Virus genome (UHGV): UHGV-0105037
Length of the DNA: 19,273 bases
Direction: 5' to 3' (one strand)
From: a virus
Shown here: piece after piece, positions 3,361-19,273 of the stretch
Position numbering within the stretch: the stretch's first letter is position 1
Layout: every line of letters starts with the position of its first letter
The notes under the pieces: generated by a model
The model's database searches: none
Told to the model about the DNA's origin: nothing
What the model saw: the letters and a program-made list of their open reading frames with translations, nothing else
Position numbers and translations under genes: made by a program

Positions 3361-3632
3361 GTATTCGTATTGAAATTGGCGAACGTTATGTCGTTACCAG
3401 TGACAGCTTTCAGTTTATTCTCCACGAGAAAAAGAGAGCTGAAAGCGGTAAAAACGCCGGTCAGGAATGGCTGGCGGTGGTTGGTTATTACCCGAAATTA
3501 AGCCAGCTCGTTTCCGGCCTGATGCATCACGATATTCTGACCGGAAGCGCAAAGTCTTTTGCTGATTTAAACGCGCAGGTTGAGCAACTCAGCAAGCGTT
3601 GTTCAGAGGCTTTTGGCTCATATGGCCGTTAA
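3357..3632 (+). CDS. Hypothetical early protein (P2 orf83-like, 91 aa)
   Basis: Co-oriented ORF with start overlapping the upstream stop; ends where A begins. Confidence 0.6.
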   Translation: MSIRIEIGERYVVTSDSFQFILHEKKRAESGKNAGQEWLAVVGYYPKLSQLVSGLMHHDILTGSAKSFADLNAQVEQLSKRCSEAFGSYGR

Positions 3633-5892
3633 AGCCTCCGGGCGTTTTGTCCCTCCGTCAGCATTTGCCGCAGGCACCGGTAAGACGTTTACCGGTGCTT
3701 ATGCATGGAACGCGCCACGCGAGGCCGTCGGGCGCGAAAGACCCCTTACACGTGACGAGATGCGTCAGGTGCAAGGTGTTTTATCCACGATTAACCGCCT
3801 GCCTTACTTTTTGCGCTCGCTGTTTACTTCACGCTATGACTACATCCGGCGCAATAAAAGCCCGGTGCACGGGTTTTATTTCCTCACATCCACTTTTCAG
3901 CGTCGTTTATGGCCGCGCATTGAGCGTGTGAATCAGCGCCATGAAATGAACACCGACGCGTCGTTGCTGTTTCTGGCAGAGCGTGATCACTATGCGCGCC
4001 TGCCGGGAATGAATGACAAGGAGCTGAAAAAGTTTGCCGCCCGTATCTCATCGCAGCTTTTCATGATGTATGAGGAACTCAGCGATGCCTGGGTGGATGC
4101 GCATGGCGAGAAAGAATCACTGTTTACGGATGAGGCTCAGGATCACCTGTATGGTCATGTTGCTGGCGCTGCACGAGCTTTCAATATTTCCCCTCTCTAC
4201 TGGAAAAAATACCGTAAAAGACAGATGACCACGAGGCAGGCATATTCTGCCATTGCCCGTCTGTTTAACGATGAGTGGTGGACTCATCAGCTTAAAGGCC
4301 AGCGTATGCGCTGGCATGAAGCGTTACTGATAGCTGTCGGGGAGGTCAATAAAGACCGTTCTCCTTATGCCAGTAAACACGCCATTCGTGATGTGCGTGC
4401 GCGCCGCCAGGCAAATCTGGAATTTCTTAAATCGTGTGACCTTGAAAACAGGGAAACCGGCGAGCGCATCGACCTTATCAGTAAGGTGATGGGCAGTATT
4501 TCTAATCCTGAAATTCGCCGGATGGAGCTGATGAACACCATTGCCGGTATTGAGCGTTACGCCGCTGCAGAGGGGGATGTGGGGATGTTTATCACGCTGA
4601 CCGCGCCGTCAAAGTATCACCCGACACGTCAGGTAGGAAAAGGCGAAAGTAAAACCGTGCAGCTTAATCACGGCTGGAACGATGAGGCATTTAATCCAAA
4701 GGATGCGCAGCGTTATCTCTGCCGTATCTGGAGCCTGATGCGCACGGCATTCAAGGATAATGATTTACAGGTCTACGGTTTGCGTGTCGTCGAGCCACAC
4801 CACGACGGAACGCCGCACTGGCATATGATGCTTTTTTGTAATTCACGCCAGCGTAACCAGATTATCGAAATCATGCGTCGCTATGCGCTCAAAGAGGATG
4901 GCGACGAAAGAGGAGCCGCGCGAAACCGTTTTCAGGCAAAACACCTTAACCGGGGCGGTGCTGCGGGATATATCGCGAAATACATTTCAAAAAACATCGA
5001 CGGCTATGCACTGGATGGTCAGCTCGATAACGACACCGGCAGGCCGCTGAAAGACACTGCAGCGGCTGTTACCGCATGGGCGTCAACGTGGCGCATCCCG
5101 CAATTTAAAACGGTTGGCCTGCCGACAATGGGGGCTTACCGTGAACTACGCAAATTGCCGCGCGGCGTCAGCATTGCTGATGAGTTTGACGAGCGCGTCG
5201 AGGCTGCACGCGCCGCCGCAGACAGTGGTGATTTTGCGTTGTATATCAGCGCGCAGGGTGGGGCAAATGTCCCGCGCGATTGTCAGACTGTCAGAGTCGC
5301 CCGTAGCCCGTCGGATGAAGTTAACGAGTACGAGGAAGAAGTCGAGAGAGTGGTCGGCATTTACGCGCCGCATCTCGGCGCGCGTCATATTCATATCACC
5401 AGAACGACGGACTGGCGCATTGTGCCGAAAGTGCCGGTCGTTGAGCCTTTGACTTTAAAAAGCGGCATCGCCGCGCCTCGGAGTCCTGTCAATAACTGTG
5501 GAAAGCTCACCGGTAGTGATGTTTCGTTACCGGCTCCCACACCTTCTGAGCACGCCGCCGCAGTGCTTAATCTGGTTGATGACGGTGTTATCGAATGGAA
5601 TGACCAGGAGGTCGTGAGGGCGCTCAGGGGCGCATTAAAACACGACCTGAGAACACCAAACCGTCAGCAAAGAAGCGGAAGCCCGTTAAAACCGCATGAA
5701 ATAGCGCCATCGGCCAGACTGACCCGGTCGGAACGAATGCAAATTACCCGTATCCGCGTTGACCTTGCTCAGAACGGTATCAGGCCGCAGCGATGGGAGC
5801 TTGAGGCGCTGGCGCGTGGGGCAACTGTAAATTACGACGGGAGAAGCTTCAGTTATCCTGTTATATGTGATTGGAGAGCGTATGAATTATGA
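3622..5892 (+). CDS. A: Replication initiation protein A (rolling-circle HUH endonuclease)
   Basis: Long ORF (770 aa from a TTG at 3580; first ATG at 3622 gives MAVKASGRF..., the N-terminus I recall for P2 A). Contains an HUH-like motif (GTPHWHMMLF) and paired tyrosines (AGYIAKYISK), as in P2 A / phiX174 gpA-type nickases. Confidence 0.9.
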   Translation: MAVKASGRFVPPSAFAAGTGKTFTGAYAWNAPREAVGRERPLTRDEMRQVQGVLSTINRLPYFLRSLFTSRYDYIRRNKSPVHGFYFLTSTFQRRLWPRIERVNQRHEMNTDASLLFLAERDHYARLPGMNDKELKKFAARISSQLFMMYEELSDAWVDAHGEKESLFTDEAQDHLYGHVAGAARAFNISPLYWKKYRKRQMTTRQAYSAIARLFNDEWWTHQLKGQRMRWHEALLIAVGEVNKDRSPYASKHAIRDVRARRQANLEFLKSCDLENRETGERIDLISKVMGSISNPEIRRMELMNTIAGIERYAAAEGDVGMFITLTAPSKYHPTRQVGKGESKTVQLNHGWNDEAFNPKDAQRYLCRIWSLMRTAFKDNDLQVYGLRVVEPHHDGTPHWHMMLFCNSRQRNQIIEIMRRYALKEDGDERGAARNRFQAKHLNRGGAAGYIAKYISKNIDGYALDGQLDNDTGRPLKDTAAAVTAWASTWRIPQFKTVGLPTMGAYRELRKLPRGVSIADEFDERVEAARAAADSGDFALYISAQGGANVPRDCQTVRVARSPSDEVNEYEEEVERVVGIYAPHLGARHIHITRTTDWRIVPKVPVVEPLTLKSGIAAPRSPVNNCGKLTGSDVSLPAPTPSEHAAAVLNLVDDGVIEWNDQEVVRALRGALKHDLRTPNRQQRSGSPLKPHEIAPSARLTRSERMQITRIRVDLAQNGIRPQRWELEALARGATVNYDGRSFSYPVICDWRAYEL

Positions 5893-5985
5893 GATTGTGA
5901 TAAAAAGTAAATAATTAATATAATGCAATTGCTTAACTGTTTTAAAAGGGACAACGTAGTTGTGAACTATATTGTCCCGGGAGTA

Positions 5986-7041
5986 TTAATTTTTAAATAT
6001 GGATTGTATGTATTCTATAGTGCTATCTTTAGCTCTGATGTCTTTTAAAGTGTTATTTATGAAATCTATTATTCTGTCATTACTTAATAGTGGCGATAAC
6101 GCATAACATGTTGTTGTGAATGTCATGACGTCACTAAAGCTTAGTGAAACACCTTTTGTCGCAGCGTTCTCAATCGCAAGAGACTCATCAATATCTAAGT
6201 TTGTTGCTCTTGGCCCTTTAAGGAAGATAACTTTTGAAATCCCGGATGCAGATGCTTTTGAAACGGCGTGATTAACATCTTGATAATTAAATGGTTTGTC
6301 TTTCACTTCTATAGAAAGGAAAACTATATCATCATGATATACATCTATGTCCAGTATCTCTTTTGAGGAGCTACCGGCCTGATTGACGGGATGTGCTTTT
6401 ATTATCCATCCTCTTTGTTCACCTAATAAATGTAACGAAATTGCGGCAGCAATCGCGCATGTTTCTCCATCACAAGGATGAGATATAATATTATAAATAA
6501 TCTTATGGAAATCAAAATTAATTGAGTTCGGCGTTATAACTCTATTGGTTCGCTGTAGGGTAAAATATAATGCAATAACAAGCATTTCATAAGCTAAGGT
6601 TTGGGTTGTTGCTGCATGTAATATATCAATTGAAAGTTGTTGTAAAACCTTATCATTTCCTCTGCGCACAGGGTTATCAGAGGAGTGGAGCATGTAACGA
6701 GCTGGTTTATTTAGAAATGGCTCATTTGATGCGCCTAACTTACCCTCTAAAAATGGGCCTTCTACTTTGCCTACTATTACCGAATGACATAAACTCCTTG
6801 CATCATAGGCTCCGTCTACGGGGGCATTAGCTTGTAAAGCCAGAGGGTTAACTCTAGGGTCTGTTGCTTTTGCAAGTAAACCAGTAATAAGTATATATCT
6901 GTATGTAAGGTGGGTGCCTAAAATTACATTTTGAATGGAGACCCATTGATTATTTGTTTTGTAATCAGTTAATTTTTTTGCATCGTTGATTGCATTTATA
7001 ATTACATTATAGGCTTGCTCATGATTTACTAATACTTTCAT
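5986..7041 (-). CDS. Uncharacterized 351-aa cargo protein; candidate restriction endonuclease or defence effector with a possible PD-(D/E)xK-like motif
   Basis: ORF in a visibly AT-rich segment unlike the flanking phage DNA. Strong RBS (AAGGA, 5 nt before the ATG at 7041). Its start overlaps the stop of the upstream HTH gene by 23 bp. Motif HDDIVFLSIEVKDK could be a D...(D/E)xK nuclease core. I do not recognise the family. Confidence 0.75.
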   Translation of the reverse strand: MKVLVNHEQAYNVIINAINDAKKLTDYKTNNQWVSIQNVILGTHLTYRYILITGLLAKATDPRVNPLALQANAPVDGAYDARSLCHSVIVGKVEGPFLEGKLGASNEPFLNKPARYMLHSSDNPVRRGNDKVLQQLSIDILHAATTQTLAYEMLVIALYFTLQRTNRVITPNSINFDFHKIIYNIISHPCDGETCAIAAAISLHLLGEQRGWIIKAHPVNQAGSSSKEILDIDVYHDDIVFLSIEVKDKPFNYQDVNHAVSKASASGISKVIFLKGPRATNLDIDESLAIENAATKGVSLSFSDVMTFTTTCYALSPLLSNDRIIDFINNTLKDIRAKDSTIEYIQSIFKN

Positions 7042-7333
7042 AGGTGTCCTTTAGTAAGATATCCATTGGTAGACCTAATCGGCTTGCAACCACCTCTAAT
7101 AATTCAAATAGTTCTAAAGCATCTAATCGCCTTTCAAAGCTTTCGATTTTAGATATATCTGATTGTGATAATCCTAGAAAAATGGCCAATTCTGACTGCG
7201 AAAGAGAAGCTTCTTTGCGTAGTTTGGTGAGAAGCTGGACTAGGCACCTGTATCTATGATCATGTATAGTTGGTTGTCGTTTTGCCATGTGGTTTAGAAG
7301 GTGATTGATTGTGTGTCGATCCTTACCTATCAT
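7019..7333 (-). CDS. XRE/Cro-family HTH transcriptional regulator (candidate controller protein); alternative start at 7288
   Basis: Translation contains a typical XRE HTH (LSQSELAIFLGLSQSDISKIE). Translationally coupled to the downstream 351-aa gene and divergent from the methyltransferase. ATG at 7333 gives 104 aa; the internal ATG at 7288 gives 89 aa. Confidence 0.72.
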   Translation of the reverse strand: MIGKDRHTINHLLNHMAKRQPTIHDHRYRCLVQLLTKLRKEASLSQSELAIFLGLSQSDISKIESFERRLDALELFELLEVVASRLGLPMDILLKDTYESISKS

Positions 7334-7371
7334 TGGTTTTATTCCAAAATCGAATAATTGGTGCTAAAGAA

Positions 7372-8463
7372 GTGAACAAAATTTCAGCGGTGAGCTTATT
7401 TACTGGGGCAGGAGGGATGGATGTCGGTTTCTCTAATGCCGGGTTCCGAACAGTTTGGGCCAATGATATAGATAAGGATGCATGTGATACATTTAAGCTT
7501 AATCATGAATCACCTGTTTTTTGTGGTGATATTGATGAGATGCTAAGTGAATTGTCTGGGCTGAAAAATATAGGTTGTGTTTTTGGTGGGCCTCCATGCC
7601 AAGGATTTTCTGTGGCAGGGAAAATGGACGCTCATGATCCACGTAGTAAGCTGGTTATGTCATTCATGCGGGCGGTGGATATAATTCAACCAGAATGCTT
7701 TGTTATGGAGAATGTTAAGGCTTTAGCACAGTTGTCCAAATTTGAACCAGTTAGGTGTGAACTGTTTAAGATGGCTGAAAAGTCAGGCTATCGTTCAGCC
7801 TTGCTGGTGCTGAATTCTAAAGATTTTGGCGTTCCTCAGAATAGGGAACGTATGTTTTTTATAGGGTTTCGTTCCGAAAATGATGTGAAACGAGTTGAGG
7901 CGGCGATAAAAAAATACCAATATCTTTCGCCAACAGTTGGTGAGATTATTCGGCCTTTAGGGCGAGCGGGTAATCCAAATAATTCAAGAGTCTGTAATGC
8001 AAGGATTACAAATGCTGCTAAGCCAGTATTACGGAAGTCACCTTACGCGGGAATGATGTTTAACGGGCAGGGAAGACCAATTAACCCGAATGGGTATGCT
8101 TCAACTATAGCTGCTTCTATGGGGGGGAATAGGACACCAATTATTGATGAAGAACACCTTTATGATGGCTCAACAAGTTATGTTGAGACTTATCATAATC
8201 ATCTAATGAATGGTGGTGAGCCAAAAGATATGCACGATGTACCTAGTCGTTTACGTCGACTAACGATAGATGAGGCTCTTTTGATTCAAACATTCCCGAG
8301 TAATTATGTCTTTGTGGGGAAAAATTCGTCAATTTGGCGTCAGATAGGGAATGCTGTGCCTTGTAAATTGGCGCAGGCTGTTGCTGCAGGGGTTTTGGAT
8401 GTCCTTACTGGTAAAACTATTAATGTTCAAAAGAGTCAAACAGAGTTGAGTTTGAATTCGTAA
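7372..8463 (+). CDS. DNA (cytosine-5)-methyltransferase
   Basis: Canonical C5-MTase motifs: FTGAGGMDVGF (motif I, AdoMet binding), GGPPCQGFS (motif IV, catalytic Cys), ENV (motif VI), QNRERMFFIG (motif VIII), GNAVP (motif X). The frame has no ATG before motif I; the ORF track starts at a TTG at 7309, and I prefer the GTG at 7372, which leaves a typical short leader before FxGxGG. Confidence 0.9.
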   Translation: MNKISAVSLFTGAGGMDVGFSNAGFRTVWANDIDKDACDTFKLNHESPVFCGDIDEMLSELSGLKNIGCVFGGPPCQGFSVAGKMDAHDPRSKLVMSFMRAVDIIQPECFVMENVKALAQLSKFEPVRCELFKMAEKSGYRSALLVLNSKDFGVPQNRERMFFIGFRSENDVKRVEAAIKKYQYLSPTVGEIIRPLGRAGNPNNSRVCNARITNAAKPVLRKSPYAGMMFNGQGRPINPNGYASTIAASMGGNRTPIIDEEHLYDGSTSYVETYHNHLMNGGEPKDMHDVPSRLRRLTIDEALLIQTFPSNYVFVGKNSSIWRQIGNAVPCKLAQAVAAGVLDVLTGKTINVQKSQTELSLNS

Positions 8464-8619
8464 AACGGATCACATTTTCAAACCGATGGATGCAGAATTT
8501 AACATTGCTGCATGAGTTTGCATCTTGAAATCATAAGCTGTACTGCTTAGCTTGACCAGAATTGATGTGGGTAAGAAGTGGTTATGCACCCGCATTAAAA
8601 CCGCCCCATTAAGCGGGCG

Positions 8620-8807: not shown

Positions 8808-9842
8808 TCAGCCGTTGTCAGTGTCCAGTGAGTAGTTTTTAAAGCGGATGACCTCCTGACCGAGCCAGCCGTTTATCTCGCGGATCCTGTCCTGTAACGG
8901 GATAAGCTCATTGCGGACAAAGACCTTTGCCACTTTCTCTATATCACCCAGCGACCCGACGTTCTCCGGCTTGCCACCCATCAACTGAAAGGGGATGCGG
9001 TGCGCGTCCAGCAGGTCAGCGGCGCTGGCTTTTTTGATATTAAAAAAATCGTCCTTCGTCGCCACTTCACTGAGGGGGATAATTTTAATGCCGTCGGCTT
9101 TCCCCTGTGGGGCATAGAGAAACAGATTTTTAAAGTTATTGCGGCCTTTCGACTTAACCATGTTTTCGCGTAGCATTTCGATATCGTTGCGATCCTGCAC
9201 GGCATCAGTGACGTACATGATGTATCCGGCATGTGCGCCATTTTCGTAATACTTGCGGCGGAACAGCGTGGCCGACTCATTCAGCCAGGCAGAATTAAGG
9301 GCGCTGAGATATTCCGGCAGACCGTACAGCTCCTGATTAATATCCGGCTCCAGCAGGTGAAACACGGAGCCGGGCGCGAAGGCTGTCGGCTCGTTGAAGG
9401 ACGGCACCCACCAGTAAACATCCTCTTCCACACCACGGCGGGTATATTTTGCCGGTGAGGTTTCCAGTCTGATGACCTTACCGGTGGTACTGTAACGCTT
9501 TTCCAGAAACGCATTACCGAACACCAGAAAATCCAGCACAAAGCGGCTGAAATCCTGCTGGGAAAGCCACGGGTGCGGGATAAACGTTGAGGCCAGAATA
9601 TTACGTTTGACGTAAATCGGTGAGCTGTGATGCACGGCAGCACGCAGGCTTTTTGCCAGACCGGTAAAGCTGACCGGTGGCTCATACCATCTGCCGTTAC
9701 TGATGCACTCGACGTAATCCAGAATATCACGGCGGTCGAGTACCGGCACCGGCTCACCAAAGGTGAATGCCTCCATTTTCGGGGCGCTGGCAGTCATTGT
9801 TTTCACCGCTGGCTGCGGTGTTTTCCCTTTTTTCTTACTCAT
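8808..9842 (-). CDS. Q: Portal (capsid vertex) protein Q (344 aa)
   Basis: 344-aa ORF next to cos on the minus strand; its start codon overlaps the P stop. Size, position and sequence match P2 Q as recalled. Confidence 0.88.
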   Translation of the reverse strand: MSKKKGKTPQPAVKTMTASAPKMEAFTFGEPVPVLDRRDILDYVECISNGRWYEPPVSFTGLAKSLRAAVHHSSPIYVKRNILASTFIPHPWLSQQDFSRFVLDFLVFGNAFLEKRYSTTGKVIRLETSPAKYTRRGVEEDVYWWVPSFNEPTAFAPGSVFHLLEPDINQELYGLPEYLSALNSAWLNESATLFRRKYYENGAHAGYIMYVTDAVQDRNDIEMLRENMVKSKGRNNFKNLFLYAPQGKADGIKIIPLSEVATKDDFFNIKKASAADLLDAHRIPFQLMGGKPENVGSLGDIEKVAKVFVRNELIPLQDRIREINGWLGQEVIRFKNYSLDTDNG

Positions 9843-11614: not shown

Positions 11615-11787
11615 GAATACCTCGCCGTGATGAATACACGGCAAGGCTACTGAGTCGCGCCCCGCGATTCGCTAAGGTGCTGTTGTGTCAGTGATAAGCC
11701 ATCCGGGACTGATGGCGGAGGATGCGCATCGTCGGGAAACTGATGCCGACATGTGACTCCTCTAATCACTATTCAGGACTCCTGACA
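11615..11787. promoter_or_regulatory. Divergent late-promoter region between P and O (expected Ogr-dependent promoters)
   Basis: 173-bp intergenic region between divergent late operons. Contains the inverted repeat ccatc-N7-gatgg (11699-11715) and TGT-rich sequence (tgttgtgtca, 11681-11690). I could not place an exact TGT-N12-ACA activator site. Confidence 0.35.
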
Positions 11788-12642
11788 ATGGCAAAAAAAG
11801 TCTCAAAATTCTTTCGTATCGGCGTTGAGGGTGACACCTGTGACGGGCGTGTCATCAGTGCGCAGGATATTCAGGAAATGGCCGAAACCTTTGACCCGCG
11901 AGTCTATGGTTGCCGCATTAACCTGGAACATCTGCGCGGCATCCTGCCTGACGGTATTTTTAAGCGTTATGGCGATGTGGCCGAACTGAAGGCCGAAAAG
12001 ATTGACGATGATTCGGCGCTGAAAGGCAAATGGGCGCTGTTTGCGAAAATCACCCCGACCGATGACCTTATCGCGATGAACAAGGCCGCGCAGAAGGTCT
12101 ACACCTCAATGGAAATTCAGCCGAACTTTGCCAACACCGGCAAATGTTATCTGGTGGGTCTGGCCGTCACCGATGACCCGGCAAGCCTCGGCACGGAATA
12201 CCTGGAATTCTGCCGCACGGCAAAACACAACCCCCTGAACCGCTTCAAATTAAGCCCTGAAAACCTGATTTCAGTGGCAACGCCTGTTGAGCTGGAATTT
12301 GAAGACCTGCCTGAAACCGTGTTCACCGCCCTGACCGAAAAGGTGAAATCCATTTTTGGCCGCAAACAGGCCAGCGATGACGCCCGTCTGAATGACGTGC
12401 ATGAAGCGGTGACCGCTGTTGCTGAACATGTGCAGGAAAAACTGAGCGCCACTGAGCAGCGCCTCGCTGAGATGGAAACCGCCTTTTCCGCACTTAAGCA
12501 GGAGGTGACTGACAGGGCGGATGAAACCAGTCAGGCATTCACCCGCCTGAAAAACAGTCTCGACCACACCGAAAGTCTGACCCAGCAGCGCCGCAGTAAA
12601 GCCACCGGCGGTGGCGGTGACGCCCTGATGACGAACTGCTAA
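11788..12642 (+). CDS. O: Capsid scaffolding protein O (284 aa)
   Basis: ORF from the ATG at 11788 (MAKKVSKFFRIGVEGD...). The C-terminal half is helix-rich (LSATEQRLAEMETAFSALKQEV), typical of scaffolds. Divergent from P as in P2. Confidence 0.85.
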   Translation: MAKKVSKFFRIGVEGDTCDGRVISAQDIQEMAETFDPRVYGCRINLEHLRGILPDGIFKRYGDVAELKAEKIDDDSALKGKWALFAKITPTDDLIAMNKAAQKVYTSMEIQPNFANTGKCYLVGLAVTDDPASLGTEYLEFCRTAKHNPLNRFKLSPENLISVATPVELEFEDLPETVFTALTEKVKSIFGRKQASDDARLNDVHEAVTAVAEHVQEKLSATEQRLAEMETAFSALKQEVTDRADETSQAFTRLKNSLDHTESLTQQRRSKATGGGGDALMTNC

Positions 12643-12700
12643 CCGGCGTCAGTCAGTCCGGGAAAACCTTCACGATTAACCCTTAATTTCAGGAAAAACT

Positions 12701-12871
12701 ATGCGCCAGGAAACCCGCTTTAAATTTAATGCCTACCTGTCCCGTGTTGCCGAACTGAACGGCATCGACGCCGGTGATGTGTCGAAAAAATTCACCGTTG
12801 AACCGTCGGTCACCCAGACCCTGATACGGAATTGCAGCGTAACGCGCTGGAGTGCGCAGGATGTGAGCTGA
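12701..12871 (+). pseudogene. N: Truncated major capsid gene N: first 41 or so codons, then out-of-frame fusion
   Basis: ATG at 12701 with RBS (aggaaaaact). Translation MRQETRFKFNAYLSRVAELNGIDAGDVSKKFTVEPSVTQTL matches the P2 N N-terminus, then switches to unrelated residues (IRNCSVTRWSAQDVS) and stops at 12869-12871. A full capsid protein would be about 357 aa. Confidence 0.7.
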
Positions 12872-13377
12872 TTTTTGAGGATAAAATCAGCGGCACGAAG
12901 TCCGACCGACCGGGACTGAAAAAACTGCTCAGGACATTATCGGAGGGGGATACACTGGTGGTCTGGAAGCTGGACCGGCTGGGGCGTAGTATGCGGCATC
13001 TGGTCATTCTGGTTGAGGAACTGCGCGAACGCGGCGTTAATTTTCGCAGCCTGACGGATGCTATTGATACCAGCACACCGATGGGGCGTTTTTTCTTTCA
13101 TGTGATGGGTGCCCTGGCTGAAATGGAGCGAGAACTCATTGTCGAGCGGACACGCGCCGGACTGGAAGCGGCCAGAGCCAAAGGTCGTATTGGTGGCAGA
13201 CGACCGAAACTCACCGCGAGTGAGTGGGAGCAGGCCGGGCGTTTGCTGGCTGCAGGGGAGTCACGTCAACGCGTGGCACTGATTTTTGATATTGGCCTGT
13301 CCACGCTCTATAAAAAATTTCCCTCATCAGCGACAAAGAATAAATTGTGTCATCCCTTAGCCAACCGGGACAAATAG
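12832..13377 (+). pseudogene. 5'-truncated serine DNA invertase (Hin/Gin/Pin/Cin family) lacking the catalytic N-terminus
   Basis: Translation (LQRNALECAGCELIFEDKISGTKSDRPGLKKLL ... MGRFFFHVMGALAEMERELIVERT ... GGRRPKL ... STLYKKF) is a typical resolvase/invertase from about residue 20 onward. There is an in-frame stop at 12799-12801 and no ATG near the homology boundary, so the first ~20 residues, including the catalytic serine, are missing. Confidence 0.78.
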
Positions 13378-13436
13378 CCTGACATCTCCGGCACAACTGA
13401 AAATACCACTCACCCATTAACCACGGAGTTAAACGG

Positions 13437-14003
13437 ATGAGTGACTATCATCACGGCGTGCAGGTGCTGGAGATTAACGACGGCACCCGCGTCATTTCCA
13501 CCGTATCCACTGCCATTGTCGGCATGGTCTGCACGGCCAGCGATGCGGATGCGGAAACCTTCCCCCTCAATAAACCGGTGCTGATTACCAATGTGCAGAG
13601 TGCAATTGCAAAGGCCGGTAAAAAAGGCACGCTGGCGGCATCGTTGCAGGCCATCGCCGACCAGTCAAAACCGGTCACCGTTGTCGTACGTGTGGAAGAC
13701 GGCACCGGCGACGACGAGGAAACGAAACTCGCGCAGACCGTTTCCAATATCATCGGCACCACCGACGAAAACGGTCAGTACACCGGACTGAAAGCCCTGC
13801 TGGCGGCGGAGTCGGTAACCGGTGTTAAACCGCGTATTCTCGGCGTGCCGGGACTGGATACCAAAGAGGTGGCTGTTGCACTGGCATCAGTCTGTCAGAA
13901 GCTGCGTGCTTTCGGATATATCAGCGCATGGGGCTGTAAGACCATTTCCGAGGTGAAAGCCTACCGCCAGAATTTCAGCCAGCGTGAGCTGATGGTCATC
14001 TGA
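13437..14003 (+). pseudogene. FI: Truncated tail sheath gene FI (188 codons of about 396)
   Basis: Good RBS (acggag) and start ([25 protein letters not shown]...) matching the P2 sheath N-terminus. The ORF stops abruptly at ...QRELMVI, and the downstream sequence continues as FII in another frame. Confidence 0.72.
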
Positions 14004-14392
14004 ACGGCAGCGCACCGGTAGACCTCGGCCTTGATGACGATGCGCTGTCAATGGAGTGGTCGCTCGGTGGTTTCCCGGATTCGGTTATCTGGGAGCTTTA
14101 CGCCGCAACCGGTGTGGATGCTGTGCCGATTCGTTTTGCAGGCTCTTACCAGCGTGACGATACCGGCGAAACGGTGGCCGTTGAAGTGGTCATGCGTGGA
14201 CGTCAGAAAGAAATCGACACCGGCGAGGGTAAACAGGGAGAAGACACCGAGTCGAAAATCTCCGTGGTCTGCACCTATTTCCGGCTGACGATAGACGGTA
14301 AGGAGCTGGTCGAAATCGACACCATCAACATGATTGAGAAGGTGAACGGCGTCGACCGGCTGGAGCAACACCGCCGCAATATCGGCCTGTGA
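14004..14392 (+). pseudogene. FII: 5'-truncated tail tube gene FII (C-terminal ~130 codons, no start or RBS)
   Basis: In the mod-2 frame the sequence right after the FI stop reads NGSAPVDLGLDDDALSMEWSLGGFPDSVIWELY ... EQHRRNIGL, which I recognise as the middle and C-terminus of the P2 tail tube protein. The only ATG (14051) has no RBS. Confidence 0.68.
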
Positions 14393-14399
14393 TTTTCAT

Positions 14400-14420
14400 C
14401 CGGTCAGCCTGGCTGACCGG
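14400..14420. repeat. Perfect 10-bp inverted repeat (ccggtcagcc-t-ggctgaccgg) between the FII remnant and E
   Basis: Read directly at 14400-14420. No U-run follows, so it is not a classical terminator; it may be an RNA stem-loop or a protein-binding palindrome. Confidence 0.5.
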
Positions 14421-14448
14421 TTAACCCCGATTCAGAAGTGAGAAAACC

Positions 14449-14724
14449 ATGAACAAAGAAAACGTCATTACCCTGGACAATCCGGTCAAACGTGGTGAGC
14501 AGGTTATCGAACAGGTCACGCTGATGAAACCCAATGCCGGGACGCTGCGCGGTGTCAGTCTGGCTGCAGTCGCGAACTCCGAAGTCGATGCACTGATTAA
14601 AGTGCTGCCGCGCATGACGGCACCGATGCTGACCGAGCAGGAAGTCGCCGCGCTGGAACTGCCTGACCTTGTGGCGCTGGCCGGTAAGGTGGTCGGTTTT
14701 TTGTCGCCGAACTCGGTGCAGTGA
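14449..14724 (+). CDS. E: Tail assembly chaperone E (91 aa)
   Basis: ORF with RBS (gtgagaaaacc ATG). Matches P2 gpE in size and position immediately upstream of the tape measure gene. Confidence 0.85.
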   Translation: MNKENVITLDNPVKRGEQVIEQVTLMKPNAGTLRGVSLAAVANSEVDALIKVLPRMTAPMLTEQEVAALELPDLVALAGKVVGFLSPNSVQ

Positions 14725-14876
14725 CGTTTCCGAAAAATCTCTCGGTCGATGACCTGATGGCGGATGTGGCAGTGATATTTCACTGGCCGCCATCAGAACT
14801 GTATCCCATGAGCCTGACCGAACTCATCACATGGCGCGAAAAGGCGCTCCGGCGAAGCGGAAACACGAATGAGTAA
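14449..14876 (+). CDS. E': E+E' frameshift fusion product (programmed -1 frameshift at the TTTTTTG slippery heptamer, 14697-14703)
   Basis: Slippery heptamer T TTT TTG sits in the E frame near its 3' end. The -1 frame is open from 14703 to a TAA at 14874-14876, overlapping the T start. This is the conserved chaperone frameshift, analogous to lambda G/GT. Confidence 0.6.
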
Positions 14877-17316
14877 CAATGTAAAATTACAGGTATTGCT
14901 AAGGGCTGTTGACCAGGCATCCCGTCCGTTTAAATCCATCCGCACAGCGAGCAAATCGCTGTCGGGGGATATCCGGGAAACACAAAAATCACTGCGCGAG
15001 CTGAACGGTCAGGCATCCCGTATTGAGGGATTCCGCAAGACCAGTGCACAGCTCGCCGTGACTGGTCATGCACTTGAAAAGGCACGGCAGGAGGCCGAAG
15101 CCCTTGCCACACAGTTTAAAAACACCGAACGTCCGACCCGTGGTCAGGCGAAAGTGCTGGAATCCGCAAAGCGTGCGGCGGAGGACTTACAGGCGAAATA
15201 TAACCGCCTGACAGATTCCGTTAAACGCCAGCAGCGGGAACTGGCCGCTGTGGGAATTAATACCCGCAATCTTGCACATGATGAGCAGGGACTGAAAAAC
15301 CGTATCAGTGAAACCACCGCACAGCTTAACCGTCAGCGCGACGCGCTGGCGCGTGTCAGTGCGCAACAGGCAAAACTTAACGCAGTCAAACAGCGTTATC
15401 AGGCCGGAAAGGAACTGGCCGGAAATATGGCCTCAGTAGGCGCTGCCGGTGTGGGGATTGCGGCGGCGGGAACGATGACCGGAGTTAAGTTGCTGATGCC
15501 CGGTTATGAGTTTGCGCAGAAAAACTCAGAATTGCAGGCCGTGCTCGGAGTGGCAAAAGACTCCGCCGAAATGACCGCACTACGCAAACAGGCGCGCCAG
15601 CTCGGCGACAATACCGCCGCCTCGGCGGATGATGCGGCCGGTGCACAGATAATCATCGCGAAAGCGGGTGGGGATGTTGATGCCATTCAGGCGGCAACGC
15701 CGGTCACGCTGAATATGGCGCTGGCGAACCGCCGCACGATGGAAGAAAACGCCGCCCTGCTGATGGGGATGAAATCCGCCTTTCAGCTTTCAAACGATAA
15801 GGTCGCTCATATCGGGGATGTTCTCTCCATGACGATGAACAAAACCGCCGCCGATTTTGACGGCATGAGCGATGCGCTGACCTATGCCGCACCTGTGGCA
15901 AAAAATGCCGGTGTCAGCATTGAAGAAACTGCCGCAATGGTCGGGGCGCTGCATGATGCAAAAATCACAGGCTCAATGGCGGGGACGGGAAGCCGTGCCG
16001 TGTTAAGCCGCCTGCAGGCACCGACGGGAAAAGCATGGGATGCACTCAAAGAGCTTGGAGTGAAAACCTCAGACAGCAAGGGAAACACCCGGCCAATATT
16101 TACCATTCTGAAAGAAATGCAGGCCAGTTTTGAGAAAAACCGGCTCGGTACTGCCCAGCAGGCTGAATACATGAAAACTATTTTCGGGGAGGAGGCCAGC
16201 TCAGCCGCCGCCGTGCTGATGACTGCCGCCTCAACCGGAAAGCTGGACAAACTGACCGCTGCGTTTAAAGCCTCAGACGGGAAGACCGCCGAGCTGGTAA
16301 ATATCATGCAGGACAACCTAGGCGGTGACTTTAAAGAGTTTCAGTCCGCTTATGAGGCAGTGGGGACTGACCTGTTTGACCAGCAGGAAGGCGCGCTGCG
16401 TAAGCTCACGCAGACGGCCACAAAGTATGTGTTAAAACTCGACGGCTGGATCCAGAAAAACAAATCACTGGCGTCAACCATCGGCATCATTGCCGGTGGC
16501 GCGCTGGCGCTGACTGGCATCATCGGTGCCATTGGCCTCGTAGCCTGGCCGGTTATCACCGGCATCAATGCCATCATCGCGGCAGCAGGCGCAATGGGGG
16601 CAGTCTTCACGACGGTTGGCAGTGCTGTTATGACCGCCATCGGGGCTATTAGCTGGCCGGTTGTGGCCGTGGTGGCCGCAATTGTCGCCGGGGCGTTGCT
16701 TATCCGTAAATACTGGGAGCCTGTCAGCGCATTCTTTGGCGGTGTGGTTGAAGGGCTGAAAGTGGCATTTGCGCCGGTGGGGGAACTGTTCACGCCACTT
16801 AAGCCGGTGTTTGACTGGCTGGGCGAAAAGTTACAGGCCGCGTGGCAGTGGTTTAAAAACCTGATTGCCCCGGTCAAAGCCACCCAGGACACCCTGAACC
16901 GTTGCCGTGATACTGGCGTCATGTTCGGGCAGGCACTGGCTGACGCGCTGATGCTGCCGCTTAATGCGTTCAACAAACTGCGCAGCGGTATTGACTGGGT
17001 ACTGGAAAAACTCGGCGTCATCAACAAAGAGTCTGACGCACTTGACCAGACTGCCGCCAGAACTCATGCCGCCACGTATGGCACAGGTGGTTATATTCCG
17101 GCGACCAGCTCTTATGCAGGCTATCAGGCTTACCAGCCGGTCACGGCACCGGCTGGTCGCTCTTATGTGGACCAGAGTAAAAACGAATATCACATCAACC
17201 TGACGGGCGGTACTGCGCCGGGGACACAGCTTGACCGCCAGTTACAGGATGCGCTCGAAAAATACGAGCGGGATAAACGTGCGCGCGCCCGTGCCAGCAT
17301 GATGCATGACGGTTAA
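14869..17316 (+). CDS. T: Tail tape measure protein T (815 aa)
   Basis: Long ORF with a coiled-coil-rich N-terminal half and a Gly/Ala-rich hydrophobic segment (IIAGGALALTGIIGAIGLVAWPVITGINAIIAAAGAMG). Follows E/E' as in all long-tailed phages. Confidence 0.9.
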   Translation: MSNNVKLQVLLRAVDQASRPFKSIRTASKSLSGDIRETQKSLRELNGQASRIEGFRKTSAQLAVTGHALEKARQEAEALATQFKNTERPTRGQAKVLESAKRAAEDLQAKYNRLTDSVKRQQRELAAVGINTRNLAHDEQGLKNRISETTAQLNRQRDALARVSAQQAKLNAVKQRYQAGKELAGNMASVGAAGVGIAAAGTMTGVKLLMPGYEFAQKNSELQAVLGVAKDSAEMTALRKQARQLGDNTAASADDAAGAQIIIAKAGGDVDAIQAATPVTLNMALANRRTMEENAALLMGMKSAFQLSNDKVAHIGDVLSMTMNKTAADFDGMSDALTYAAPVAKNAGVSIEETAAMVGALHDAKITGSMAGTGSRAVLSRLQAPTGKAWDALKELGVKTSDSKGNTRPIFTILKEMQASFEKNRLGTAQQAEYMKTIFGEEASSAAAVLMTAASTGKLDKLTAAFKASDGKTAELVNIMQDNLGGDFKEFQSAYEAVGTDLFDQQEGALRKLTQTATKYVLKLDGWIQKNKSLASTIGIIAGGALALTGIIGAIGLVAWPVITGINAIIAAAGAMGAVFTTVGSAVMTAIGAISWPVVAVVAAIVAGALLIRKYWEPVSAFFGGVVEGLKVAFAPVGELFTPLKPVFDWLGEKLQAAWQWFKNLIAPVKATQDTLNRCRDTGVMFGQALADALMLPLNAFNKLRSGIDWVLEKLGVINKESDALDQTAARTHAATYGTGGYIPATSSYAGYQAYQPVTAPAGRSYVDQSKNEYHINLTGGTAPGTQLDRQLQDALEKYERDKRARARASMMHDG

Positions 17317-17330
17317 GGAGGTAACGAAAA

Positions 17331-17810
17331 ATGATGCTCGCGTTAGGTATGTTTGTTTTTATGCGCCAGACGCTGCCACACCAGACCATGCAGCGTGAAT
17401 CAGATTATCGCTGGCCGTCAAATTCCCGTATCGGCAAACGGGATGCCTTTCAGTTTCTCGGTACGGGTGAGGAAAACATCACGCTTGCCGGTGTGCTTTA
17501 TCCTGAACTGACCGGCGGAAAGCTGACGATGACCACGCTCAGACTGATGGCAGAGGAAGGCCGGGCGTGGCCGTTGCTGGATGGCACCGGCATGATTTAC
17601 GGCATGTATGTCATCAGCAAGGTGAGTGAAACAGGGAGTATTTTCTTTGCAGACGGCACACCCCGGAAAATTGATTTTACGCTGTCACTCACCCGCGTTG
17701 ATGAATCACTGGCCGCGCTTTATGGCGATATCGGTAAACAGGCGGAATCGCTCATCGGTAAGGCTGGCAGTATGGCGACCAGATTCACGGGTATGACGGG
17801 GGCGGGATAA
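17331..17810 (+). CDS. U: Tail protein U (159 aa)
   Basis: ORF with strong RBS (taaggaggtaacgaaaa ATG); P2 gene order T-U-D. Confidence 0.85.
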   Translation: MMLALGMFVFMRQTLPHQTMQRESDYRWPSNSRIGKRDAFQFLGTGEENITLAGVLYPELTGGKLTMTTLRLMAEEGRAWPLLDGTGMIYGMYVISKVSETGSIFFADGTPRKIDFTLSLTRVDESLAALYGDIGKQAESLIGKAGSMATRFTGMTGAG

Positions 17811-18973
17811 TGCTGGATACGCTGACATTTGATGCAGGCAGTACGCTGACGCCGGATTACATGCTGATGCTCGACAGCAGGGATATTACCGGCAATATCA
17901 GCGACCGTCTGATGAGCATGACTCTGACGGATAACCGGGGCTTTGAGGCTGACCAGCTTGATATTGAACTGAACGATGCCGACGGGCAGGTCGGACTGCC
18001 GGTTCGTGGCGCTGTCCTGACGGTGTATATCGGCTGGAAAGGTTTTGCCTTGGTATGCAAAGGGAAATTTACCGTTGATGAGGTTGAACACCGGGGCGCG
18101 CCGGATGTGGTCACCATCCGCGCCCGGAGTGCAGATTTCCGCGGGACGCTCAATTCCCGCCGTGAAGGTTCATGGCATGACACCACGCTCGGTGCGATTG
18201 TTGAGGCGATAGCCTCCCGTAACAGGCTGGAAGCCAGTGTCGCTCCGTCACTGGCCGGAATTAAAATCCCGCACATCGACCAGTCGCAGGAGTCTGATGC
18301 GAAATTCCTGACCCGTCTTGCAGAACGCAACGGCGGTGAGGTGTCGGTAAAAATGGGAAAACTGTTGTTTCTCAAAGCGGGGCAGGGGGTGACGGCCAGC
18401 GGTAAAAAAATCCCGCAGGTCACCATAACCCGCAGCGACGGCGACCGCCATCATTTTGCGATTGCTGACCGTGGAGCCTATACCGGTGTAACGGCAAAGT
18501 GGTTACACACCAAAGACCCGAAACCGCAAAAGCAGAAGGTAAAACTGAAACGCAAAAAGAAAGAGAAACACCTGCGCGCACTGGAGCACCCGAAAGCGAA
18601 ACCAGTCACGCAGAAGAAAGCGCCAAAAGTACCGGAAGCGCGCGAAGGTGAATACATGGCTGGTGAGGCTGACAATGTTTTTGCCCTGACCACGGTATAT
18701 GCCACGAAAGCACAGGCCATGCGTGCCGCTCAGGCGAAGTGGGATAAGCTGCAACGGGGTGTAGCGGAGTTCTCCATCATCCTGGCTACCGGTCGTGCAG
18801 ATATTTACACGGAAACGCCGGTCAAAGTGTCAGGCTTTAAGCGCGTCATAGACGAGCAGGACTGGACAATCACTAAGGTGACACATTTTCTGAATAATAG
18901 CGGCTTCACGACGTCCTTGGAGCTTGAGGTCAGGCTTTCTGATGTGGAGTACGAAACAGAAGATGATGAGTGA
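17810..18973 (+). CDS. D: Tail protein D (387 aa)
   Basis: Start ATG overlaps the U stop (TAATG); has a Lys-rich basic stretch (KPQKQKVKLKRKKKEKHLR). Size and position match P2 D. Confidence 0.85.
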   Translation: MLDTLTFDAGSTLTPDYMLMLDSRDITGNISDRLMSMTLTDNRGFEADQLDIELNDADGQVGLPVRGAVLTVYIGWKGFALVCKGKFTVDEVEHRGAPDVVTIRARSADFRGTLNSRREGSWHDTTLGAIVEAIASRNRLEASVAPSLAGIKIPHIDQSQESDAKFLTRLAERNGGEVSVKMGKLLFLKAGQGVTASGKKIPQVTITRSDGDRHHFAIADRGAYTGVTAKWLHTKDPKPQKQKVKLKRKKKEKHLRALEHPKAKPVTQKKAPKVPEAREGEYMAGEADNVFALTTVYATKAQAMRAAQAKWDKLQRGVAEFSIILATGRADIYTETPVKVSGFKRVIDEQDWTITKVTHFLNNSGFTTSLELEVRLSDVEYETEDDE

Positions 18974-19054
18974 TGTGTTTTATTTATGTATTTGTTTTAT
19001 ATGTATAAATTAACTAAAATGGCACCATCAACAAAATCGGAAGAGGTGCTCGCG

Positions 19055-19273
19055 ATGTTTCATTGTCCTTTATGCCAGCATGCCGCACATGCGCGTACAA
19101 GCCGCTATATCACTGACACGACAAAAGAGCGTTATCACCAGTGTCAGAACGTGAATTGCAGCGCCACGTTCATCACTTATGAGTCGGTACAGAGATACAT
19201 CGTGAAGCCGGGAGAAGTCCACGCCGTAAGGCCGCACCCGTTGCCGTCAGGGCAGCAAATTATGTGGATGTAA
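19055..19273 (+). CDS. ogr: Late gene transcriptional activator Ogr (zinc finger, 72 aa)
   Basis: The ORF begins at 18986, but the internal ATG at 19055 has RBS aagagg and gives MFHCPLCQHAAHARTSRYITDTTKERYHQCQNVNCSATF..., with CxxC ... CxxxxC zinc-finger cysteines and the 72-aa length of P2 Ogr. The stop is the last codon of the window. Confidence 0.85.
   Translation: MFHCPLCQHAAHARTSRYITDTTKERYHQCQNVNCSATFITYESVQRYIVKPGEVHAVRPHPLPSGQQIMWM

Follow-up and report, generated by a model that had tools for sequence, protein, structure and literature searches.

An EcoT38I restriction-modification cassette in the cargo slot of a defective P2-like prophage

Introduction

What does a 351-codon open reading frame encode when it lies among the genes of a P2-like phage, and is its product as novel as a reading of its letters might suggest? 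The frame occupies the minus strand, ATG through stop, at positions 5986-7041 of the 19,273-nucleotide stretch of DNA analysed here, hereafter the window, which spans from an integrase gene (50-1063) to a partial open reading frame at 18986-19273. An initial annotation, made from the sequence by eye, placed the product (here R) in an unrecognised family, named a possible PD-(D/E)xK nuclease core as its only recognisable feature, and found it plausible that its specificity or its effector fold was new. The evidence taken as a whole leaves little room for doubt about a different answer: the frame is almost certainly ecoT38IR, which encodes the SacI-family Type II restriction endonuclease EcoT38I and is situated in a C-controlled restriction-modification cassette, cargo of a P2-like prophage of E. 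coli. None of this is new: the enzyme with its family and fold class, the control protein and the carriage on P2 prophages are documented already, and the value of the present analysis lies mainly in a correct annotation of the EcoT38I cassette in the P2 cargo slot.

Results

The open reading frame encodes EcoT38I

The identity of R can be read from the PDB, Pfam, PADLOC and RefSeq. In a phmmer search of the PDB, residues 1-351 of R align with residues 1-351 of 7e8r chain A at 100% identity (E=4.2e-234). Entries 7e8r (apo) and 7edb (DNA complex) both describe the "EcoT38I restriction endonuclease", a previously characterised and crystallised enzyme, and at the protein level there is no difference between it and R, all 351 residues being identical; with this identity, the suggestion of a new specificity or effector fold falls away. 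R is also a strong, full-length match to the Pfam family of R.SacI, PF09566 (RE_SacI), scoring 258 bits (E=1.9e-76; gathering threshold, 19.3 bits) over model positions 4-276 of 276, and it scores 834 bits against the PADLOC REase_II model PDLC03473. RefSeq holds R as WP_000866882.1 under the same family name, 'restriction endonuclease, SacI family'. Because Pfam, PADLOC and the PDB each recognise the whole of the protein, neither the description of the nuclease-like segment as its only recognisable feature nor the assignment to an unrecognised family can be upheld.

Other parts of the initial annotation were sound. The frame is well supported as a gene, both by the Pfam match and by at least 1419 homologues, with PF09566 in all among the matches listed, and the exact R sequence is present on 986 contigs of a large protein collection. 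The reported AAGGA ribosome-binding site is in place 5 nt before the ATG (minus strand ...taAAGGAcacctATG; start region ...taAAGGAcacctATGaaagta). The stop codon of the upstream HTH open reading frame lies at 7019, giving a 23-nt overlap with the start of R that is consistent with the translational coupling proposed for the two genes.

We take the recognition and cleavage specificity of EcoT38I to be GRGCY^C, that of a Type IIP enzyme and an isoschizomer of HgiJII and BanII, as we understand it to be given in REBASE and the Takara catalogue. SacI presumably cuts a strict site, GAGCT^C; at positions 2 and 5, where that site is fixed, EcoT38I would tolerate R and Y, respectively. Within the searchable literature we found no statement of the EcoT38I recognition site, and no paper describing 7e8r or 7edb beyond their use as a software test case.

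Domain organisation and the catalytic motif

An AlphaFold prediction from the single sequence of R was unusable (pLDDT 40.5) and was replaced by an AF2 model built on a 117-sequence alignment, A2 (pLDDT 94.8, pTM 0.86). According to the secondary structure of this model, R begins with an all-helical domain of about residues 1-189 (positions 6475-7041, minus strand) and ends with an alpha/beta domain of about residues 190-351 (5989-6474, minus strand), to which the beta strands of the protein are confined. The N-terminal domain, which is presumed to be the DNA-recognition domain, contains invariant blocks, DARSLCH (80-86) and SNEPFLNKPAR (105-115) among them, in alignments A1 and A2. The C-terminal domain is predicted to consist of a helix (193-210), strands at 212-216, 232-236 and 239-247, a second helix (253-265) and a strand (270-275), followed by a further helix (286-295) and strand (299-304). 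As modelled, its topology is that of a canonical PD-(D/E)xK domain with an alpha-beta-beta-beta-alpha-beta core. The top Foldseek match of the model is 7edb_A, 'EcoT38I complexed with DNA', at a TM-score of 0.88. The structure prediction that the initial annotation had proposed as a check favours the fold that it had suspected.

Conservation and the model together place the catalytic motif in the segment DIDVYHDDIVFLSIEVKDK (R residues 231-249, positions 6295-6351, minus strand), which reads D231-I-D233-...-E245-V-K247-D248-K249. D231, D233, E245, K247, D248 and K249 are invariant among the 117 homologues of R, and E228 is also invariant in the family alignment. In the AF2 model, the second core strand (232-236) carries D233, and the third (239-247), adjacent to the second, carries E245-x-K247 at its end. 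From this conservation and the predicted fold we infer that D233, E245 and K247 form the catalytic triad of R. The segment first singled out as a PD-(D/E)xK core would therefore be the right one, with the invariant D233, E245 and K247 on modelled core strands 2 and 3. The HDD residues nominated for mutagenesis, H236, D237 and D238, vary among the homologues, some of which have YQ-NGRA, YC-NENI or YE-NKVL in this region. A D...ExK pattern picked out by eye had the fold right, yet missed a catalogued family.

When the profile of the R family (A2) was compared by hhalign with the FokI cleavage domain, in a sequence entered by hand, the probability was 0.2%, a negative result, and a profile search of the PDB with the family returned EcoT38I as its sole match. 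Because profile methods tie the family to no other nuclease, the link to the superfamily comes from structure only; profile similarity is not required for PD-(D/E)xK membership, since the superfamily is defined by fold. Likewise, no sequence relationship to EcoT38I is detectable in the PD-(D/E)xK domains of FokI, the R.BspD6I small subunit, N.BspD6I or LlaBIII. These are Type IIS or ISP enzymes with separate recognition modules and cleavage outside the site, whereas EcoT38I is a Type IIP enzyme with a helical N-terminal domain of its own. From an analysis of sequences, Orlowski and Bujnicki (2008, PMC2441816) had earlier assigned the SacI subfamily to the PD-(D/E)XK superfamily, with the lowest of their grades of reliability.

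The AF2 model resembles the available structures to different degrees. Its TM-score, as given above for chain A of 7edb, falls to 0.48 against chain B of the same entry and to 0.55 against the apo structure 7e8r, a gap that suggests large inter-domain movement or an asymmetric complex. On this reading, which we hold to be improbable, the domains of R would shift greatly when it binds DNA, or its dimer would be asymmetric, and the way in which the SacI-family helical domain reads the degenerate R and Y positions, perhaps as yet unpublished, might be derived from the deposited coordinates.

A C-controlled cassette and its putative operator

R is one of three genes in a classic C-controlled Type II restriction-modification cassette. 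The cognate C5-cytosine DNA methyltransferase gene, ecoT38IM, encodes 363 amino acids from a GTG at 7372 (positions 7372-8463, plus strand) and is transcribed divergently from the other two genes. Its product, M, matches Pfam DNA_methylase PF00145 (E=1.3e-66) and TIGR00675 (dcm), and in its 363-residue form is identical to UniRef entry Q83VT0_9CAUD, 'DNA (cytosine-5-)-methyltransferase', of taxon Peduovirus P2. Directly ahead of R on the same strand, the HTH open reading frame matches Pfam HTH_3 and the PADLOC Control_protein model; this is ecoT38IC, encoding the control (C) protein, of 89 amino acids when counted from ATG 7288 (7019-7288, minus strand). The same divergent arrangement, with M on one side and C followed by R on the other, is repeated at homologues of R in Enterobacter, Pseudescherichia, Yersinia and Pseudoalteromonas (74, 64, 60 and 51% identity, respectively). 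With PvuII, EcoRV and EcoO109I, as C-controlled systems, the cassette shares a small HTH gene upstream of R and overlapping it, a divergent methyltransferase gene and a palindromic operator upstream of C, the last being putative here (PMC2632904). That study (Sorokin et al. 2009) names C.EcoT38I itself as one of the REBASE C proteins for which a binding site is predicted.

The C gene could start at either of two codons within 7286-7333 of the minus strand, and both lengths of the protein are deposited in public collections. RefSeq begins the gene at ATG 7333, for 104 amino acids. The 89-residue start is common to the Yersinia and Pseudoalteromonas homologues, as judged from gene calls and an alignment of the M-C intergenic region, and given this alignment and the 89-residue calls in two homologues, a comparison of sequences, ATG 7288 is most likely the start.

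Between the start codons of M and C lies a putative C-box operator, the palindrome TATTC-N7-GAATA (positions 7340-7356), which was recognised through the homologous loci. The palindrome, TATTCGATTTTGGAATA on the minus strand, is identical in three enterobacterial homologous loci, and its counterpart in Pseudoalteromonas is TATGCGATTTTGGCATA, or TATGC-N7-GCATA, in which both arms are altered and the dyad is retained. A two-arm change that preserves the dyad would be expected of the operator of a dimeric C protein. TATTC-N7-GAATA occurs once in the window, where no second, weaker copy was found within 3 mismatches.

An imperfect inverted repeat of 18-20 nt, with arms at 7319-7336 (ATCCTTACCTATCATTGG) and 7460-7479 (CCAATGATATAGATAAGGAT), flanks a stretch that holds the operator and the opening codons of M. 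It was considered as a regulatory element and set aside, being absent from the four homologous loci, and may be fortuitous.

Prophage setting and distribution

As a cargo insert of low GC content, the cassette occupies the slot between gpA and cos/Q of a P2-like prophage. On its left, the slot is bounded by the P2 gpA replication endonuclease gene (3580-5892, plus strand; Pfam Phage_GPA, E=1.3e-122), and on its right by the P2 gpQ portal protein gene (8808-9842, minus strand; Pfam Phage_portal), which at the DNA level is about 98% identical to P2-like phages. GC content is 36-41% across positions 6001-8500 and 48-58% in the adjoining 500-nt windows. The corresponding slot holds tin and old in P2 and other cargo in phage 899. 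Among complete E. coli genomes in RefSeq, 20 of 5426 carry the cassette at 99% or higher DNA identity over its whole length, and in all 20 it has the P2 replication endonuclease gene on one side and the portal gene on the other. A megablast search of a phage collection with the cassette gave no match, and the cassette has thus been seen solely in prophages within bacterial genomes.

The prophage in the window is defective. The gpO scaffold gene (11722-12642) is directly followed by a serine recombinase/invertase gene (12832-13377), after which come a truncated tail sheath gene FI of 188 amino acids (13437-14003), as compared with the 1191 nt of an intact P2 FI (P2 positions 17652-18842), and a truncated tube gene FII (14051-14392). 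Missing from the window are genes N to G, which cover capsid, lysis, baseplate and fibre functions. Among complete RefSeq E. coli genomes, none matches 80% or more of positions 11700-14900 as one place. In its title, an earlier report locates the EcoT38I restriction-modification gene on a P2 prophage that is possibly defective (Kita, Kawakami and Tanaka 2003, J Bacteriol 185:2296, PMID 12644501); as far as that title goes, the genomic setting found here, a defective P2 prophage, is alike.

Discussion

Proposed mechanism

A general scheme for the action of the cassette can be proposed. M would methylate the recognition site, and host and prophage DNA would thereby be protected. By analogy with other C-controlled systems, the C protein would build up slowly and bind the palindromic operator in front of the C gene, so that activation of the C-R operon would be delayed, and translation of R would be coupled to that of C through their overlap of 23 nt. 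The helical N-terminal domain of R would then read the DNA sequence, and a homodimer of R, presumed because the DNA complex 7edb has two protein chains, would bind the palindromic site. D233, E245 and K247 would bind Mg2+ and hydrolyse the phosphodiester bond, and both strands would be cut. In the cargo slot, the cassette would serve its prophage as both a defence and an addiction module.

Alternative readings of the locus

It might be argued that R is after all a new restriction-type nuclease of no recognised family, whose specificity or effector fold could be new as well. NCBIfam has no model that matches R, which is perhaps why the protein looked unassigned. A PF09566 match at E=1.9e-76, 100% identity to a crystallised enzyme, and at least 1419 homologues, those listed carrying PF09566, under an existing RefSeq name speak so strongly against such novelty that we give it virtually no credence. 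Only slightly more credible, and still very improbable in our judgement, is a decaying or silent cassette, perhaps unexpressed or inactive in its host. The condition of the prophage might be thought to point that way, most of its late genes being gone and gpO giving way to a serine recombinase and to truncated sheath and tube genes. Against decay or silence, R keeps its full length and the exact sequence of the crystallised enzyme, and C, M, the operator and the ribosome-binding site are all intact; moreover, the cassette is kept at 99% identity or above in the 20 complete genomes, and the exact protein recurs on the 986 contigs.

The identification as EcoT38I in a C-controlled cassette of a P2-like prophage is compatible with a further possibility, which concerns what the cassette is for. 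Its main role may lie in addiction, with post-segregational killing serving to stabilise the defective prophage, and not in anti-phage defence. C-controlled Type II systems are classic selfish restriction-modification modules, and this one sits on a prophage that is defective and does not look inducible. In P2, however, the same slot holds the anti-phage genes tin and old, and on balance we regard a primary role in addiction as a serious possibility that is nonetheless less probable than not.

Recognition sites in the window and in related phages

GRGCYC, the presumed EcoT38I site, occurs 0 times in the 19,273 bases of the window, against an expectation of 15.5 +/- 3.5 from shuffles and 8.6 from an order-4 Markov model. 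We considered selection by the cassette as the cause and rejected it. P2 (L003, positions 1-33593), which is without the cassette, also has 0 sites in 33.6 kb, where 13.8 are expected, and phage 899 has 3 against 17.9 expected, all of them in its cargo region (L002, 7098-8223). Moreover, the window lacks 17 of the 64 palindromic hexamers, among them CAGCTG, GCCGGC and GGCGCC (14-16 expected). The absence of GRGCYC looks like a general avoidance of palindromes in P2-like genomes and not an effect of the cassette.

A second position on P2-type elements

The gpA to cos/Q slot is not the only place in which such a cassette is found. In Yersinia aldovae (L004/L005, positions 3575-6053), the 60%-identical M-C-R cassette adjoins a P2-like prophage at the opposite end, by ogr and gpD. 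From this location it follows that P2-type elements have acquired the M-C-R cassette at more than one site.
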